Below, piece by piece: positions 1,434-24,670 of a DNA stretch of 62,560 bases. A program made the position numbers and the translations under genes. Positions within the stretch are counted from its first letter, which is position 1. Every line of letters begins with the position of its first letter. The stretch comes from a virus (taxonomy: Duplodnaviria > Caudoviricetes): positions 1 to 62,560 of the IMG/VR virus record IMGVR_UViG_3300011442_000003; one strand, written 5' to 3'. The notes under the pieces are model-generated. The model worked only from the letters and a program-made list of their open reading frames with translations. It did no database searches and was not told the DNA's origin.

Positions 1434-1695
1434 CAAGGATCTGGCGCAGCTTGAGTGCGTGATTACCCAAGCCGAGGCGGACAAGCTGGAACGCATCCGC
1501 CTCGATAGCCGTGGCGGCATGTGCGGCACCGGCATCGTTGCCGTCGGTCACACTCCCGAGGGCGAGATCGAGGACGAGCATCAAAAGTTCGTGATCTTTC
1601 CCTGCTTCCTCGTGAACCTCGACAGCACGGGCTGTTACCCCGAGTTCGTCTATCTCTCGCGCACCGGCTATCCCTTGCCGGTGACGGTTGAATAA
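1423..1695 (+). CDS. Hypothetical protein
   Basis: GAGGAGG SD before ATG 1423. Confidence 0.6.
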   Translation: MQVSKDLAQLECVITQAEADKLERIRLDSRGGMCGTGIVAVGHTPEGEIEDEHQKFVIFPCFLVNLDSTGCYPEFVYLSRTGYPLPVTVE

Positions 1696-1711
1696 CTAGT
1701 GAGGTAATCTA

Positions 1712-2023
1712 ATGATGCTGAACATACGTGTTATCATCGCGCACCTGCCCGAGGACTGGATCAGCCAGTCGCGCTACGACGACCTGACCAACGTTACCAC
1801 CGTGGTGATCGACGACCGGCGCATCCCCGAGGGGCGCACGCTGCAGTTCATCATCGCCCACGAGATCAGTCATGCCCTCGCGGCGTATGAGCATCGGCAA
1901 CGGTATGCAGCGCGCTTCAACGCCGCGCAGGACTACATCATCAACGAGATGCTGAAGCCCTCGCGCATACGCACCGACGGCCACCAGATCGACGCCGACG
2001 GCATCGACTGGTCGCGTTCATAA
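1712..2023 (+). CDS. Small HExxH (ImmA/IrrE-like) metallopeptidase-motif protein
   Basis: FIIAHEISHAL motif; GAGGT SD. Confidence 0.55.
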   Translation: MMLNIRVIIAHLPEDWISQSRYDDLTNVTTVVIDDRRIPEGRTLQFIIAHEISHALAAYEHRQRYAARFNAAQDYIINEMLKPSRIRTDGHQIDADGIDWSRS

Positions 2024-2054
2024 ACCCTAACCAGTGAGGTAACCAACAACCAAT

Positions 2055-2639
2055 ATGTACCAGCACAATATCGAGGGCGACGCCCTGCGTGCGGCCTACA
2101 ACTGGCACGGCACGCAGACGCGCAAGGACAGCGACGTGCCCTACATCATCCATCCTGTACGCGTCGGCTTGCTGATCAGCGTGGCGTTCACCGAGGTGCC
2201 GCGCTTCGAAACCGGCGGCGACAACCCCGACATGATCGTTGCGGCGGCGTTCCTGCACGACGTGGTCGAAGATTGCAACGTCAACCTTGCCGACTTCGAA
2301 CAGGAGTTCGGCTACCACGCTGGTAACCATCTCTACAGGTTGGTCAACGAGGTCACCGAGCCAAGTCGTGTGCACAAGGGAGACCCACTATGGAACCGTG
2401 CGGCGCGCAAGTCGCTCGACGCCCAACACTACGGCAACTCATCACCTGCGGGGGCGACCATCAAGCTGGCCGACATCATCGATAACCTCAGCGAGATCGA
2501 GAAGCTCCAGCCGCGTTTCCTGCCGGTATACATGCGCGAGATGCTCGCTCTCGTGCCGCTGCTGGCGCACGGGCACCCCACGCTGTACGCTCGTGCCGAG
2601 CAAGCCATCGGCATAACCAGTGAGGTAACCAGATGCTAG
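2055..2639 (+). CDS. HD-domain (p)ppGpp hydrolase-like protein (Mesh1/small alarmone hydrolase family)
   Basis: H-x-x-Q-x-RK...PYIIHP...AAFLHDVVED...LVNEVTE...IKLADIIDNL match RelA/SpoT hydrolase motifs. Confidence 0.85.
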   Translation: MYQHNIEGDALRAAYNWHGTQTRKDSDVPYIIHPVRVGLLISVAFTEVPRFETGGDNPDMIVAAAFLHDVVEDCNVNLADFEQEFGYHAGNHLYRLVNEVTEPSRVHKGDPLWNRAARKSLDAQHYGNSSPAGATIKLADIIDNLSEIEKLQPRFLPVYMREMLALVPLLAHGHPTLYARAEQAIGITSEVTRC

Positions 2640-2845
2640 GTCGCTATCTCGTGCACGCCGAGCAGACCACGTCGAGCCAGAGCGGCAGCACGCTCTACAA
2701 CTACTACATCCGTGAGCGAGGCGCGCACGAGGGGGAGTACCTCGCCCGCGTCTATGACCCCCAGCTTGCCGACCGCATCGTGGATCTTCTCAACAGGTAC
2801 GGTACGCCCCGGCCCAGCACGGCCCAACAACAGAAACTTCTTTAA
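2633..2845 (+). CDS. Hypothetical protein
   Basis: Motif/SD at 2614-2628. Confidence 0.6.
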   Translation: MLGRYLVHAEQTTSSQSGSTLYNYYIRERGAHEGEYLARVYDPQLADRIVDLLNRYGTPRPSTAQQQKLL

Positions 2846-2874
2846 CCAGCTAACTAACCAACGAGGTAAGTCAA

Positions 2875-3987
2875 ATGTATCTTCGTCAACTCGCGACCCG
2901 GCTCTATCCGATACTCGCTTCCGACAACGCGGTTGAGCTTATTAGCCCGCCGGGAATTGGTAAGTCCGAGTTTGTGCGGCAGTTCGTCGAGGAACGCCGT
3001 CGCATCACCGGCAAGCGCATCGGCCTTGGCATCATGATGATCGCCAACTACACGCCGATTGATCTTCTGGGATACATGATCCCCGAGGACACGCTGATCA
3101 CCAACGCCGACGGCATTACCATCACGGTTAAGCGTTCGGTCTACACGATCCCGCCGTGGTTCCTGTCGGAGGAGGGTATCCCCCTCAACGACTACGACGA
3201 AGCCTACCTGTTCATGGACGAGTATGGTCAGGGCGAGCCCGACGTGAAGAAGCTGACGGCTGAGCTATTGCTCAATGCCCAGATCGGCCCGTGGAAGCTG
3301 GACAAGAGCAAGGTGTTTCGCATCGCCGCGAGCAATCGCGCGAGCGACCGTTCGGGTGTGACCAAGTCGATGGATCACATCATCAACCGACGCATCGAGC
3401 TTCACATCAAGCCCGACTGGCTCTCGTTCGACCAGTGGGCCATGAAAGGCGGCGTCGCGCCGTTTTTCCGGCTCTATGCCGAGAAGCACATCGAAGTGGT
3501 GTTCAGCGGCACCATGCCCAAGGACCAAGGTCCCTTCTGCACGCCTCGCTCGCTGGTGAAGCTCTCACGCGTGTTCGACGCCTTTGCCGACCCCGACACG
3601 GGGGCTTACCCGGCTGGTAACGACGAGGAGATGGCGTTCCTGTCGGAGGTAGCCGAGGGCACGGTGGGCACGCCTGCAGCGCGCTCGATCATGGCCTTCA
3701 TCAAGGTCCAGACCGAGACGCCTGCCTTCGAACTTATCGTGAAAGATCCCAAGGGCGTGTGGTTGCCCGAGCGTGCCGACGCCAAGATGCTCACGGCCTA
3801 CTCGTGCGCGCATCGCGTCGACGTGTCCAACATCGCCCCGGTGATCGAGTTCATGCAGCGGCTGAGCCCTGACTACGCAACCACGTTCGCGAAGTCGGCG
3901 GCCAAGCGGGACCATCGCCTCATGAAGTCCAAGGAGTTCTTGGGCTGGGTGTCCAAGAACGCCGCGCTGCTCAACGCGATCAGCTAG
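2875..3987 (+). CDS. MoxR-type AAA+ ATPase
   Basis: Walker A SPPGIGKS, Walker B YLFMDE, sensor AASNR, IINR, TPRS. Confidence 0.85.
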   Translation: MYLRQLATRLYPILASDNAVELISPPGIGKSEFVRQFVEERRRITGKRIGLGIMMIANYTPIDLLGYMIPEDTLITNADGITITVKRSVYTIPPWFLSEEGIPLNDYDEAYLFMDEYGQGEPDVKKLTAELLLNAQIGPWKLDKSKVFRIAASNRASDRSGVTKSMDHIINRRIELHIKPDWLSFDQWAMKGGVAPFFRLYAEKHIEVVFSGTMPKDQGPFCTPRSLVKLSRVFDAFADPDTGAYPAGNDEEMAFLSEVAEGTVGTPAARSIMAFIKVQTETPAFELIVKDPKGVWLPERADAKMLTAYSCAHRVDVSNIAPVIEFMQRLSPDYATTFAKSAAKRDHRLMKSKEFLGWVSKNAALLNAIS

Positions 3988-4035
3988 GGAGCTAGTAACC
4001 AGCGTGGTTAAGCCGAGGGTTATTAACAATAACCC

Positions 4036-4064
4036 TTGACTTACGGTATGCAACTAGTTAAACA
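4036..4064 (+). promoter_or_regulatory. Putative sigma70-like promoter
   Basis: TTGACT-17 nt-TAAACA, preceded by inverted repeat GGGTTATT-AAC-AATAACCC (4017-4035); spacer contains ACGGTATGC. Confidence 0.45.
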
Positions 4065-4086
4065 ACCATAACCAAGGACATAAGTC

Positions 4087-23609: not shown

Positions 23610-23612
23610 CGG

Positions 23613-23771
23613 TCACCCAACGTTGTGCAGGTTGCCCGTGAGGAACAGGATCAGCAGCACGACCAGCACGAGGCCGACCACGCCGCCGAGCCCGCCGTAG
23701 CCCCACTGTGCGTGGCCGTACCAGCCGCCACCCAGCAGCACCACGATCAGGATGATGATTATAAGGGTCAT
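23613..23771 (-). CDS. DUF3309-like small membrane protein
   Basis: MTLIIIILIVVLLGGGWYGHAQWGYGGLGGVVGLVLVVLLILFLTGNL. Confidence 0.7.
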   Translation of the reverse strand: MTLIIIILIVVLLGGGWYGHAQWGYGGLGGVVGLVLVVLLILFLTGNLHNVG

Positions 23772-23917
23772 CCGGGTGGGTAGACCTTCCACCCGAGGAT
23801 CGCGAGCAACACCAGCACCACGCCGACGCCGGGGAACCAAGGCTGCACGCGGTAGTAATACCCGCCGCCGAGGGCCGCCAACACGAGGATCACCCAGAAC
23901 AGGATCATGAGGAGCAT
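23768..23917 (-). CDS. Small 2-TM membrane protein (49 aa), not in the ORF track
   Basis: MLLMILFWVILVLAALGGGYYYRVQPWFPGVGVVLVLLAILGWKVYPPG; GGAGG SD. Confidence 0.65.
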   Translation of the reverse strand: MLLMILFWVILVLAALGGGYYYRVQPWFPGVGVVLVLLAILGWKVYPPG

Positions 23918-23928
23918 GACAGCCTCCA

Positions 23929-24099
23929 TCACTTCTTCTTGAACAACCTACACCACATGCCGGTGTCGATCTGGCCCTGCACCAACGCGCACTTACCATC
24001 GTGGTAGTGCCTGCAGATCCCACAATGGGCAGACTTCATGCCCATCGAATAACCGACACTCGACTTCGATCTCAGGTTCGTTGGTTTGCGTGCCGCCAC
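23929..24099 (-). CDS. HiPIP-like four-Cys mini-protein (56 aa), not in the ORF track
   Basis: KSSVGY...CGIC-x7-CALVQGQIDTGMWCRLF. Confidence 0.6.
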   Translation of the reverse strand: MAARKPTNLRSKSSVGYSMGMKSAHCGICRHYHDGKCALVQGQIDTGMWCRLFKKK

Positions 24100-24100
24100 G

Positions 24101-24325
24101 CTACTTGCGGCCCTTCATTGCGTTGTTGCGAAAGCCTCCCTGCACCGAGCCGCCGCCGCAGAACGACTGCGCCATCTTGTTGGCCTTGATCGGCTTAGCC
24201 TTCATGATGCCCGACTTGCTAATGCCGGGGGCCATCGACGGCGCATTGGTGTCGGAGCCGTAGCCCGCAGCGGGACCGCCAGCGCCCTTGAGCCTAGCAG
24301 GCGTGTCGCCCTTGGTCATCGCCAT
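24101..24325 (-). CDS. Small basic Gly/Lys-rich protein
   Basis: Lys/Gly/Met-rich; SFCGGGSV motif. Confidence 0.6.
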   Translation of the reverse strand: MAMTKGDTPARLKGAGGPAAGYGSDTNAPSMAPGISKSGIMKAKPIKANKMAQSFCGGGSVQGGFRNNAMKGRK

Positions 24326-24326
24326 C

Positions 24327-24473
24327 TCACTTCCCCTTTTTCTTGGACCTGAGGAAGGCGGGGAACTGCTTCGCGTCCCGCTTCTGGTCCGCCTTCGAAC
24401 CCTCCTTCACGCCCTTGTCGTTGTCGAACTTGGAACGTTCGAACGCCGCCTTGGTCGGCTTACCCTTTGCCAT
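24327..24473 (-). CDS. Small basic protein (48 aa), not in the ORF track
   Basis: [54 protein letters not shown]. Confidence 0.6.
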   Translation of the reverse strand: MAKGKPTKAAFERSKFDNDKGVKEGSKADQKRDAKQFPAFLRSKKKGK

Positions 24474-24634
24474 CACTTCCTCACTTTCTTGAGCTTGGTC
24501 GCTGTACCTCCACCACTCTTACGCGCCGTGTTCATCGCTATCGCGACGGCCTGCTTCTGGGGTTTGCCTGCTGCCAACTCGGTCCTGATGTTCTGCGAGA
24601 CGGTGGCGCGGTCGGTCCCCTTCTTGAGCGGCAT
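24473..24634 (-). CDS. Small basic phage protein (MPLKKG...KQAVAIA type), not in the ORF track
   Basis: [40 protein letters not shown]; motif/SD at 24637. Confidence 0.7.
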
Positions 24635-24670
24635 GGTTACCTCGGTGGTTATCTGGGATGTCTAACTGGT

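Follow-up and report, generated by a model that had tools for sequence, protein, structure and literature searches.

A palindrome fused to gene starts

The window, that is, the whole stretch of 62,560 nucleotides analysed here, is a 62.5-kb phage genome (93% coding) in which the 15-base palindrome T[AT]ACC-N5-GGT[AT]A occurs at 47 places, a mean spacing of ~1.3 kb. Searches of both strands identified 24 matches to TAACC-N5-GGTAA against 0.01 expected, a number reached in 0 of 100 shuffles, and 18 matches to TTACC-N5-GGTAA against 0.02 expected. The first-pass annotation had proposed that the palindrome is merged with the Shine-Dalgarno (SD) sequence of about 17 genes, and this was borne out: we counted 18 exact fused copies, each 1–12 nt upstream of an ATG (16 of them at 1–5 nt), all sense-oriented and 17 serving the + strand early block. 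The right arm of these copies, (G/A)AGGTAA, is the source of the SD (GAGGT), and the left arm keeps the genome's half-site TAACCA, unlike TAACCT, the complement of AGGTAA. The 16 gene starts originally named all hold, with the ATG 1–9 nt past the motif in each, and copies before the genes at 2055 (12 nt) and 13770 (2 nt), as well as a one-mismatch copy before 1712, can be added. A looser pattern placed 50% of sites within 30 nt of a gene start as called by our own crude codon-bias caller, compared with 9% of random positions, and a motif-type start was present in 19 of 42 genes on the polymerase strand versus 4 of 46 on the opposite one.

On the + strand, the one-mismatch copy (TAACT...GGTAA, 1693..1707) precedes gene 1712-2023. 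Exact copies follow at 2028..2042, with the ATG of the HD-domain protein gene (2055-2639) 12 nt on; at 2614..2628, within the 3' end of that gene and 4 nt before the ATG of 2633-2845; and at 2855..2869, 5 nt before the ATPase gene 2875-3987 and with an orphan TAACCAG half-site ahead. Further copies at 6053..6067, 6509..6523, 7123..7137, 7555..7569 and 8048..8062 precede 6073-6297 (by 5 nt), 6529-7125 (5 nt), 7139-7564 (1 nt), 7572-7868 (2 nt) and 8065-8193 (2 nt), the last being only a 42-codon ORF and not a longer frame. The copy at 8463..8477 has a TTACC left arm and lies within 8195-8494, 3 nt before 8481-8714, while those at 9216..9230 and 10028..10042 lie 1 nt before 9232-10002 and 4 nt before 10047-10886, the latter again behind an orphan TAACCAG. 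At 13753..13767, a copy whose right arm is TGGTAA lies within 13565-13789 and 2 nt before 13770-14174. Copies at 15838..15852 and 17499..17513 each stand 2 nt before their genes (the SNF2 helicase gene, 15855-17387, and 17516-17911), 17949..17963 stands 9 nt before 17973-19295, and 22773..22787, with two further TAACC units ahead, stands 3 nt before the Acb2/Tad1-like gene 22791-23069. The copy at 62382..62396 is 2 nt before a gene that starts at 62399 and continues across a 123-bp terminal overlap to 639. The sole - strand fused copy (24637..24651) lies 2 nt before 24473-24634.

At some fused copies a TAA or TGA inside the motif is the stop of the preceding gene. The left-arm TAA had been suggested to play this part, and it does so in the copies at 1693 (stop of 1354-1695), 6053 (5924-6055) and 7123 (6529-7125); near 15836 the stop instead falls 2 nt before the motif, and at the 7555 copy the stop of 7139-7564 is a TGA within the spacer.

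Copies inside and between genes

The in-gene copies, with the consensus TTACCA-N3-TGGTAA, are mostly symmetric (13/20), in agreement with the initial description. They are split roughly evenly between codon phases 1 and 2, and of the asymmetric copies three are sense and three antisense. They were identified at 1418..1432 (TA/TA form); in the ATPase gene at 3116..3130 and 3606..3620 (symmetric); in the VWA/DUF2201 gene at 4330..4344, 4706..4720 (symmetric) and 5120..5134; in the DNA polymerase gene at 12166..12180 (symmetric) and 13200..13214; and, as symmetric copies, in the PD-(D/E)XK exonuclease gene (14212..14226) and the primase/helicase gene (20079..20093). A copy at 61400..61414 lies inside the gene of p245. 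Elsewhere, symmetric copies occur in a 2453-aa ORF (25465..25479, 27927..27941 and 30805..30819), a 1231-aa ORF (32902..32916), and the tail-fibre-like (41677..41691), portal (52026..52040) and endolysin (57005..57019) genes, and a further copy lies at 35841..35855, within 35732-36862. The symmetric copy at 54244..54258 is at the 3' end of 53739-54266, and the called TerL start follows it by 18 nt.

Symmetric copies also precede genes of the - strand: 37322..37336 is 8 nt before the start of the late gene 36828-37313(-), 45358..45372 is 3 nt before that of 43591-45354(-), and 51003..51017 precedes 50767-50988(-) by 14 nt, with a separate AGGAG SD lying downstream of the copy. Another, at 47666..47680, is intergenic and directly 3' of the major capsid gene. 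The symmetric form TAACCA-N3-TGGTTA was found at 3996..4010, between the ATPase gene and 4087-4311; at 60678..60692, in the large intergenic region heading the early block; at 61088..61102, its centre 27 nt upstream of the p245 gene (61122-61859); and at 61866..61880, right past the p245 stop. An asymmetric intergenic copy (14945..14959, +) lies away from any start.

Early gene order in near relatives

Alignment of the early regions of three near relatives (L154, X4 and X5; one 8.3-kb contig and two public assemblies) with the window revealed permuted genes as well as missing and additional ones, the breakpoints being located within copies of the motif. L154 has g7572 and g7868 ahead of g7139, is without g6529 and g6073, and switches homology inside motif copies at its positions 880, 1116, 1612 and 2032. 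The corresponding breakpoints in the window fell at the fused copies at 6053, 6509, 7123, 7555 and 8048 for L154, at those at 6053, 7123 and 7555 for X4, and at that at 7123 for X5. X4 has joints from 7126 to 7555 and from 5920 to 6052, X5 has a back-joint from 7872 to 7123, and both have a joint from 2869 to 2947, divergence at the fused copy of the ATPase gene beginning with base 2869.

Most structural boundaries in the early region fall at or inside motif copies, which supports the recombination linker that had been one of three proposed functions; since 8 of the 17 gene starts in the compared region carry the motif, any breakpoint at a gene boundary had about an even chance of touching it. 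Two differences are off the motif, namely one from 11260 to 11724 in X4, X5 and L154, and the TM29/TM3_14A replacement at 20208-20548. Because a single arrangement is common to L154, X4 and X5, the permutation may be one event.

A palindrome common to the phage clade

The first-pass annotation had missed that the motif is a trait of the whole phage clade. A TTAC...GTAA-type palindrome of 15–16 bp was dominant or recurrent, in tens of copies, in 14 of 15 related genomes. Its inner bases and spacer vary between genomes, matched on both arms, with the arm pairs TTACCA/TGGTAA, TTACCT/AGGTAA, TTACCC/GGGTAA, TTACCG/CGGTAA, TTACGG/CCGTAA, TTACA/TGTAA and TTACT/AGTAA. In each genome the spacer length is common to fused and in-gene copies (N5 in the window, N6 in TM3_14A and G009), indicating that the two are one entity; by our own reading of the listed rows, the G001 cassettes also have N6. 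A sub-clade with arms that do not resemble an SD has kept the palindrome inside genes and unlinked to starts (2/22, 2/23 and 2/25 sites). The proportions of sites within 30 nt of starts in G003 and G006 were 17% and 4%, versus 9% and 8% for random positions.

Site density in the polymerase-strand (early) block was 2–3 times that of the other (late) block in most genomes. A site was present upstream of the p245 gene in 6/15 genomes, the ATPase gene in 7/14 and the VWA gene in 6/14, compared with 1/15 for each of the SNF2, polymerase and primase genes.

Comparison of the window with L154 gave 0 mismatches in 105 motif positions and 201 in 840 flanking positions; the copies at 8463, 9216, 10028 and 13200 are among those identical in L154, and three syntenic pairs gave 0/45 in the motif versus 37/360 in the flanks by our own count. 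In-gene sites of divergent genomes also fall on the same alignment columns, that is, in orthologous places: the copy at 4706 shares its column with sites of G002 and TM3_14A, that at 13200 with G011 and G014, and that at 52026 with G002 and G005, and five other genomes have sites at alignment columns 277-281 at the primase/helicase copy. Together, the unchanged motif positions and recurring columns suggest that the copies are under purifying selection.

Loss of the palindrome in one relative

G010 was the one relative without any palindrome, having 0 sites in its polymerase-strand block and only five chance-level matches to the loose pattern. It is the sister of G007 in a quick tree, and it has kept none of eight G007 in-gene sites, of which the more distant G008 has kept three. 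G010 is also without a four-gene early module, as tblastn gave 0 hits for p245, the ATPase, p74 and VWA. This joint loss of sites and module is a single case.

A putative cognate factor is possibly encoded within that module. The candidate is p245, an all-helical early protein (61122..61859, +) whose structural model gave no informative structural match; the other members of the module lie at 2875..5927 (+) and comprise the MoxR-like ATPase (2875-3987), p74 (4087-4311) and DUF2201/VWA (4311-5927) genes.

Possible role of the palindrome

The reading that we favour, at roughly 55%, is that the palindrome is a genome-wide DNA site, putatively bound by a factor, which is fused to gene starts and doubles as short homology for shuffling. 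A symmetric, probably dimeric, phage-encoded factor would read the site on double-stranded DNA and, by occupying gene starts and sites within early genes, would modulate early expression, e.g., as a roadblock or operator. The same 15–20 nt before unrelated genes would serve as short homology for recombination, so that the early region would consist of interchangeable cassettes whose joints the palindrome copies mark. The PeSLs of T4-type phages likewise make gene sets exchangeable cassettes. In Cluster K mycobacteriophages, start-associated sequences (SAS) have nearly all positional features in common with the fused copies and, as described, no function assigned so far. We consider that the arrangement belongs with these known kinds, as a new variant of them.

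Based on the occurrence of its in-gene copies on both strands and in two codon phases, its weak folding and the absence of an excess of sense G.U over A.C (76:73 in genes, 42:42 at starts), the motif appears to behave as a double-stranded DNA site rather than as an RNA hairpin or peptide. An operator at gene starts, as had been suggested, is plausible and indirectly supported, since the symmetry, a spacer that does not differ between fused and in-gene copies, the indifference of the latter to orientation and the joint disappearance of all sites and a gene module in G010 argue for a factor that binds double-stranded DNA; the search for the binding protein itself with Pfam and PHROGs found no DNA-binding regulator in the early block. 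Overall, the earlier interpretation was partly supported.

It is possible, if rather doubtful, that the fused copies are instead a purely translational, SAS-like signal, in which the ribosome, or an RNA-binding factor of the phage (an activator, repressor or nuclease) that sets early translation, recognises UAACCA-N3-GAGGUAAC in the mRNA, the in-gene palindromes being separate. The uniform sense orientation of the fused copies, their tight spacing to the ATG, their near restriction to early genes and the likeness to SAS would be explained in this way. TAACCA alone in non-coding DNA is strongly biased to the sense strand (35 vs 10), and G001 has ~45 places with (G/A)GTAAC and a nearby downstream ATG, mostly GGTAACAC-ATG at fixed spacing, where the left arm has shrunk to ACC and is far less well kept than GGTAACAC-ATG; GTAAC lies just upstream of the start in 20 of its 49 called polymerase-strand genes. 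Both patterns agree better with a strand-specific signal at the RNA level than with a symmetric site on DNA. However, such a signal does not account for a spacer length and half-site that are common to fused and in-gene copies and change together between genomes, for the wholesale loss of sites in G010, or for the sub-clade that keeps the in-gene palindrome off starts.

We regard as unlikely that the sites are targets of an active site-specific DNA enzyme (a nuclease, nickase or recombinase) that catalyses integron-like cassette movement. The sites are palindromic and of high specificity, crossovers fall within the motif's 15–16 nt, and the swap of neighbouring cassettes is that expected from excision and reinsertion between three copies. 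In addition, partial duplications (TAACCAG plus TAACCAACGAGGTAA) at 2843, 6497 and 10019 resemble imprecise joins, site loss in G010 accompanies loss of a gene module, and the genome carries VRR-NUC-like, PD-(D/E)XK and HNH genes. Yet Pfam and PHROGs detected no integrase, transposase or recombinase family, and nuclease presence is uncoupled from the palindromes: the VRR-NUC family is missing in site-bearing G011 and the HNH family in site-bearing G008, G003 and G006, whereas the exonuclease and SNF2 are both present in site-free G010. The events are also few, with one common arrangement explaining all three relatives.

A similarly improbable alternative is that the sites serve another DNA transaction (primase-helicase priming, replication control or genome organisation), their overlap with SDs reflecting lack of room in a densely coding genome and a chance likeness of AGGTAA to an SD. 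The random-like placement in G003 and G006, the identical site that a palindrome presents on either strand, the average spacing of ~1.3 kb and the conserved in-gene positions are consistent with this, but the higher early-block density is unexpected for priming or packaging, sites concentrate upstream of the p245, ATPase and VWA genes, and G010 retains its polymerase, primase and helicase and yet has no sites.

The weak mRNA hairpin that had also been proposed, with the left arm pairing with the SD and restraining translation, is disfavoured as very improbable: nominally the left arm complements the right arm, which carries the SD, and perfect 6-bp stems occur among the fused copies of TM3_14A (3/11) and G009 (6/18), but 15 of 22 start-associated copies in the window (looser pattern) have mismatches at positions 2 and 6/10 of the arms, retaining only ACC/GGT and the outer T-A pair, the mean folding energy of start-associated copies is -1.95 kcal/mol, and start copies across the clade are enriched in the position-2 mismatch (TAAC in 7/18 of G009, with none among the in-gene patterns listed, and in 3/11 of TM3_14A). 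For the favoured factor-binding site, the SD of fused copies would stay unpaired in the mRNA owing to the A in position 2 of the arm and the A/A pair in positions 6/10.

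A palindrome at the starts of early genes

The sequence TAACC-N5-GGTAA was found 24 times in the window, compared to an expected 0.01 matches, and TTACC-N5-GGTAA was found 18 times, compared to an expected 0.02. The general form of this palindrome, T[AT]ACC-N5-GGT[AT]A, was present at 47 places. On our gene map, 18 of the 47 copies were situated 1-12 nt upstream of the ATG of a gene, 16 of them within 1-5 nt of the start, and ATG was the start codon of all 18 genes. We refer to these copies as fused, as their right arm is GAGGT or AAGGT and contains the Shine-Dalgarno (SD) core. 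The other copies comprised three symmetric ones upstream of late genes, six that were intergenic elsewhere and 20 within genes.

The distribution of the fused copies followed the layout of the 62,560-bp genome. Early and replication genes are on the + strand from approximately 60.7 kb through the end of the record to 23 kb, a block that encodes a MoxR-like ATPase, a DUF2201/VWA protein, a family A DNA polymerase, a PD-(D/E)XK exonuclease, an SNF2 helicase and a DUF927 primase-helicase. The terminase genes (53.7-55.7 kb) are also on the + strand, and the virion and lysis genes are on the - strand. Seventeen of the 18 fused copies were in the + strand early block and one was at 24637 on the - strand. 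Motif-type starts were identified for 19 of 42 genes on the polymerase strand versus 4 of 46 on the other strand, and late genes mostly had ordinary GGAG or GGAGG sites. The two ends of the record share an exact 123-bp overlap (1-123 and 62438-62560), and a gene that starts at 62399 runs across it to 639 (~225 codons), so that the open reading frame of 73-639 represents a portion of that gene.

All 16 gene starts at which the first-pass annotation had noted the fusion were recovered by our gene map, which added starts at 2055 and 13770 and one with a one-mismatch copy at 1693. The suggestion that the TAA of the left arm doubles as the stop codon of the preceding gene was borne out at 6053, 7123 and 1693, but not at 15836, where the stop is located just before the motif; at copy 7555 the upstream stop is a TGA within the spacer. 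A symmetric subclass, TAACCA-N3-TGGTTA, flanks the gene for p245, an all-helical early protein (61122-61859, + strand), with copies at 61088 and 61866, and a further copy (3996) is situated after the ATPase gene. Just upstream of full motif copies, at variable distances, we observed tandem orphan half-sites of the left arm, either TAACCAG or TAACCC (half-site plus full copy at 2843-2869, 6497-6523, 10019-10042 and 22756-22787), which may be additional half-sites or the remnants of joins that were imprecise.

The exact 16-mer TAACCAGTGAGGTAAC was identified in 11 IMG/VR contigs as a single copy each, showing that the exact cassette is not numerous in any other IMG/VR record. Our literature searches on phage palindromes and Shine-Dalgarno sequences, and on Rhizobium phage repeats, returned no description of the motif among the matches listed.

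The palindrome in related phages

The closest named relatives of the window phage are the Rhizobium phages RHph_TM3_14A, TM27A, TM27B and TM29, four nearly identical phages that have the same genome layout and a capsid protein 68% identical to that of the window. Capsid relatives are plentiful in metagenomes, with at least 587 related capsid loci confirmed in IMG/VR, and the clade is commonly contained in soil and freshwater metagenomes. Neither a Megablast search of the phage collection with 1-20000 and 30000-50000 nor a search of IMG/VR with the DNA polymerase as the lone query gave a match. Our comparison set consisted of 14 near-complete IMG/VR relatives (G001-G014) and TM3_14A; G007 and G013 are one phage (99.9% identity) and uninformative as a pair.

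An unbiased scan for gapped 5-mer palindromes revealed one dominant family, (G)TTAC...GTAA(C), in 13 of these 15 relatives, the exceptions being G010 and G001, although the latter still has five copies. The two arms change together across the clade: the palindrome is TTACCA-N3-TGGTAA in the window, TTACCT-N4-AGGTAA in TM3_14A and G009, TTACCC-N3/4-GGGTAA in G014, TTACCG-N3-CGGTAA in G008, G007 and G013, TTACGG-N3-CCGTAA in G003, TTACA-N5-TGTAA in G006 and TTACT-N6-AGTAA in G012. Ten records had 14 to 69 matches each to TWACC-N4-7-GGTWA, in comparison to 0-2 in controls. The first 50 kb of Pseudomonas phage Rollin, a weak relative, did not contain such a palindrome.

Each genome has the same spacer length in its fused and in-gene copies, indicating that the two represent one entity. 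The cassette was found at the start of 16-45% of early genes in ten genomes and of no more than 5% in six (G008, G003, G006, G007, G013 and G010). These six form one clade with a support of 100 in a quick four-protein tree; their arms are not SD-like, or are absent (G010), and their palindromes are mostly in-gene with little or no link to gene starts. The existence of this clade with in-gene palindromes indicates that the SD fusion is a lineage trait built upon an older, dispersed palindrome. For most genomes, whether or not they have fused copies, the density of sites was 2-3 times higher in the early block.

G001 (loci L121-L124) has the most extreme start cassette of the clade. There were approximately 45 places in which (G/A)GTAAC and an ATG were within 14 nt, most of them having the form ...ACC-N6-GGTAACAC-ATG with fixed spacing, and few full palindromes (18 sites).

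The motif was strongly conserved relative to its surroundings. Seven copies that could be matched between the window and L154, an 8.3-kb metagenome contig, had 0 mismatches in 105 positions, while their 60-nt flanks differed at 201 of 840. In addition, in-gene sites occupied matching alignment columns even though the proteins of the genomes concerned share only 30-60% identity, including columns 277-281 of the primase (six genomes), column 116 of the SNF2 helicase (five genomes), columns 1210 and 1240 of the DNA polymerase and column 727 of the portal protein.

Recognition as DNA or RNA

Based on these sequence comparisons, we favor a symmetric factor that recognizes the palindrome as double-stranded DNA, the SD being left free in the fused copies. 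Thirteen of the 20 in-gene copies are true palindromes, and the asymmetric in-gene copies comprise three sense and three antisense. Codon phases 1 and 2 are used about equally by the in-gene copies, which argues against their encoding a peptide motif. Across genomes, the ratio of G.U to A.C on the sense strand of the arms was 76:73 in genes. The left arm of the fused copies, TAACCA, is the genome's own half-site and not the complement of AGGTAA. TAAC is favored over TTAC in start copies across the clade, which results in weaker pairing and, sometimes, a stop codon.

The main rival to recognition as double-stranded DNA is a signal at the RNA level, resembling the start-associated sequences (SAS) of Cluster K mycobacteriophages. 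We retain this possibility because TAACCA alone shows a sense bias outside coding sequence (35 sense versus 10 antisense) and because GGTAACAC-ATG in G001 is more strictly conserved than the left arm. An RNA hairpin that occludes the SD, as raised in the first-pass annotation, was not supported: 15 of 22 start-associated copies in the window, identified with a looser pattern, have mismatches at arm positions 2 and 6/10, the G.U to A.C ratio at starts was 42:42, and the mean folding energies of -1.95 to -2.5 kcal/mol represent weak hairpins. These copies did not show a stable SD/anti-SD pairing maintained through compensatory or wobble substitutions in the sense strand. A restriction or modification site, a Chi-like site, a REP/RAYT element and base pairing between 16S rRNA and the left arm were also considered and provisionally set aside.

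Motif copies at genome breakpoints

The polymerase of L154 is 90% identical to that of the window, and the contig aligns to window 5175-13439. The order in L154 is a homologue of gene 6299, a motif, homologues of genes 7572 and 7868, a motif, a homologue of gene 7139, a motif and a gene of its own; window genes 6073 and 6529 are missing. At L154 positions 880, 1116, 1612 and 2032 the homology switches between window contexts inside the motif. The copy at 1116, for example, combines the spacer of window copy 6509 with the 3' flank found at copy 7555, and flank identity falls from 58/60 to 27/60 across the copy at 880 and rises from 32/60 to 56/60 across the copy at 1612. One motif copy of L154 (2946) is absent from the window and marks the end of an insertion (2419-2957). 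We considered L154 2052-2291 as a homologue of window 6073-6297 but rejected this assignment, despite both having TGTCATGG after the motif.

Assembled contigs of near relatives from two soil runs (X4 and X5) were aligned to window 1500-21499. The joints described here were those among the joints listed, with ten further joints beyond them. X5 had a back-joint of 7872 to 7123 and a joint of 7139 to 7635, reproducing the permutation of L154. X4 had joints of 7126 to 7555 and of 5920 to 6052, the latter having its right edge at the motif; gene 5924 is missing from X4. A joint of 2869 to 2947, beginning at the end of a motif, was present in both X4 and X5. L154, X4 and X5 have one arrangement in common, and the swap in these contigs may be a single event.

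Short-homology recombination predicts crossovers of this kind, within a 15-16-nt repeat that provides unrelated neighbors with their sole homology. By our own count, the motif is present at 8 of the 17 gene starts in the compared region, meaning that a breakpoint at a gene boundary would meet it about half the time by chance. The proposal of the first-pass annotation that the motif serves as a recombination linker was supported in near relatives by the breakpoints within copies in L154, X4 and X5, but did not extend to all replacements. A replacement from 11260 to 11724 in all three contigs had edges without the motif, and the one replaced segment between TM29 and TM3_14A also had edges that were not at motifs. 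In the first of these two cases, the window segment 11261-11723, located upstream of the polymerase gene, gives way to 35 other bases in X4 and X5, and its counterpart in L154 is an unrelated 147-codon open reading frame.

Comparison with known repeat systems

In position and anatomy, the motif is closest to SAS and ESAS of the Cluster K mycobacteriophages, based on excerpts of two publications (Pope et al. 2011, PMC3203893; Front Microbiol 2025, PMC12699233). Those excerpts describe between 11 and 19 copies in each genome, usually placed 3-7 bp upstream of a start codon that is ATG in 80 of 93 cases, with an SD core inside, symmetric outer parts, a restriction to the non-structural half of the genome and sometimes an upstream stop codon. 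The fused copies share the placement 1-12 nt from an ATG (mostly 1-5 nt), the SD core, here in the right arm, and the concentration in the non-structural half. The consensus of the inverted repeats linked to SAS varies by subcluster, and SAS have been known since 2011 as conserved sequences at phage gene starts whose function is unknown (PMC3203893; PMC12699233). However, SAS are described in the same excerpts as non-palindromic and almost never in genes, whereas the window motif is also a true palindrome within genes, on both strands, with 20 of 47 copies in-gene. The host phylum and the type of phage differ as well. The excerpts do not mention a role at breakpoints (PMC3203893; PMC12699233). 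A search of the window with the 13-bp SAS consensus GGGATAGGAGCCC, allowing up to two deviations, gave 2 matches versus 1.68 expected, neither of which was a repeated start element.

In evolutionary effect, the closest system is PeSL (promoter-early stem-loop) of T4-type phages, as excerpted from Arbiol et al. (2010, PMC2839356). PeSLs are short repeats with a regulatory role that separate small, non-essential early genes, each repeat being composed of a sigma-70-type promoter and a terminator stem-loop. Insertion, deletion and replacement junctions of close relatives occur at these repeats, and nearby copies recombine, thereby shuffling modules and giving rise to small circular DNAs, or mini-circles (PMC2839356). 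The junctions at motif copies in L154 (880, 1116, 1612, 2032 and 2946), X4 and X5 are comparable. In contrast to PeSL, the unit here is 15-16 nt and fused to a ribosome-binding site rather than a promoter-terminator. The PeSL cassettes are reportedly also the subject of work by Comeau et al. in 2014. A consensus scan of 1-20000 identified six sigma-70-like promoter sites versus 5.3 expected, one of which (8047-8075) overlaps the motif, over copy 8048, and none of 12 terminator-like sites was on the motif. The best sigma-70-like promoter match, at 8966-8994 on the + strand (TTGACA-17-TATAGT with TG, 11/12), is upstream of gene 9022-9210 and off the motif.

Two other systems have single features only in common with the motif. 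Stoperators of Cluster A mycobacteriophages are asymmetric and serve as binding sites for the prophage repressor in temperate phages, with tens of copies dispersed in the genome, many of them in short gaps at gene boundaries. The motif is likewise a short, predicted binding site dispersed in tens of copies with many at gene boundaries, but it is palindromic. An excerpt of Pope et al. describes stoperators as 13-bp sites acting in transcription regulation (PMC3203893). Searches of the window with Pfam and PHROGs detected no repressor, Cro-like or integrase family, including an integron integrase, although many early proteins are without a family. Integron cassettes are promoterless genes in variable order, each with one imperfect palindrome, attC, at its 3' end. 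The window resembles them in having promoterless genes, each linked to an imperfect palindrome, whose order differs among relatives; the motif differs in being far shorter (15 nt), at the 5' end of genes and doubling as a ribosome-binding site.

Loss of the palindrome in G010 and a candidate factor

G010, sister to G007 in a quick tree, had no overrepresented palindrome in the gapped-palindrome scan and no site in its polymerase-strand block. None of eight in-gene sites of G007 is kept at the orthologous place in G010, whereas three of the eight are kept in the more distant G008. G010 also lacks p245, the ATPase, p74 (the product of 4087-4311) and the VWA protein, with zero tblastn hits and an intact early block, and these four families are present in other relatives. 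Sites within 120 nt upstream were found for p245 in 6 of 15 genomes, the ATPase in 7 of 14 and the VWA protein in 6 of 14, versus 1 of 15 each for the SNF2 helicase, polymerase and primase. The co-loss in G010, together with these upstream sites, makes the four-gene module a candidate for the source of the cognate factor, although it is a single lineage that points to this. An AlphaFold model of p245 had a pLDDT of 72.6; Foldseek against the PDB returned nothing at E <= 0.001, and a wide VIA-align search returned only generic helical hairpins (Z <= 8) that were uninformative for its fold.

The most likely scenario, in our view, is that a symmetric, phage-encoded factor would bind the sites on DNA and, once bound, tune or shut off early expression. 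Fused copies would be kept non-self-complementary such that ribosomes can load, and the repeated cassette would provide the homology through which early genes are permuted, deleted or imported. We also considered a more far-reaching speculation, which we regard as improbable, that the palindrome is the address of an undescribed phage system (p245, the MoxR-like AAA+ ATPase, p74 and the VWA/DUF2201 protein) acting on double-stranded DNA at 20 to 70 sites per genome and coupling control of early expression at gene starts to catalyzed cassette exchange. Such a system would be a phage-borne counterpart of integrons in which the recombination site is also a ribosome-binding site.

Most documented cases of module shuffling through repeats come from T4-type phages, and here one 15-nt element combines such shuffling with fusion to gene starts. 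The identity of this element is narrowed by three comparative signals: the co-change of its arms, its DNA-site signature and its loss with four genes in one lineage. As the clade includes cultured Rhizobium phages, binding, reporter and recombination tests are feasible. If a factor were found, it would provide an account of how a lytic phage standardizes its early genes while keeping them exchangeable, as well as a rule for annotating gene starts in genomes of the clade.

Other features of the genome

The ATPase (2875-3987) and the DUF2201 metallopeptidase/VWA protein (4311-5927) form a pair that belongs to the core genes of the clade. Two genes likely have anti-defense roles: 22791-23069 (+ strand), which has a fused motif start and encodes an Acb2/Tad1 hairpin-domain protein (Pfam E 5.8e-10), and 58014-58424 (- strand), which encodes a Tad2-like protein (Pfam E 4e-18).

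The genome as a whole had no recognizable RNA polymerase gene. Two giant open reading frames on the - strand, 24671-32032 (2453 aa) and 32034-35729 (1231 aa), are without a Pfam family or PDB sequence match, and the former matches only PHROGs of unknown function. The 2453-aa product therefore gave no sign of being a virion RNA polymerase, and we found no basis for interpreting the motif as an N4-type hairpin promoter.

Gene 17973-19295 (+ strand) encodes a clade-core protein of 440 aa in which four cysteines are invariant, the C-terminal helix is conserved and a long stretch is of low complexity and rich in Pro/Ala. PDB sequences yielded no hit in a profile search with this protein, and its predicted model (pLDDT 61) had non-significant matches (E >= 0.1) to OB-fold/SSB-like structures such as RPA and gp32, a weak hint that it may be SSB-like.

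In RHph_TM3_14A, the product of EVB41_076 (L009, 42239-45322), annotated in GenBank as a putative integrase, is a homologue of the window DUF927 primase-helicase (35.5% identity over 99% of the query). In the same record, attL and attR are annotated as 14-bp items, one within the ATPase gene and the other within a different gene.
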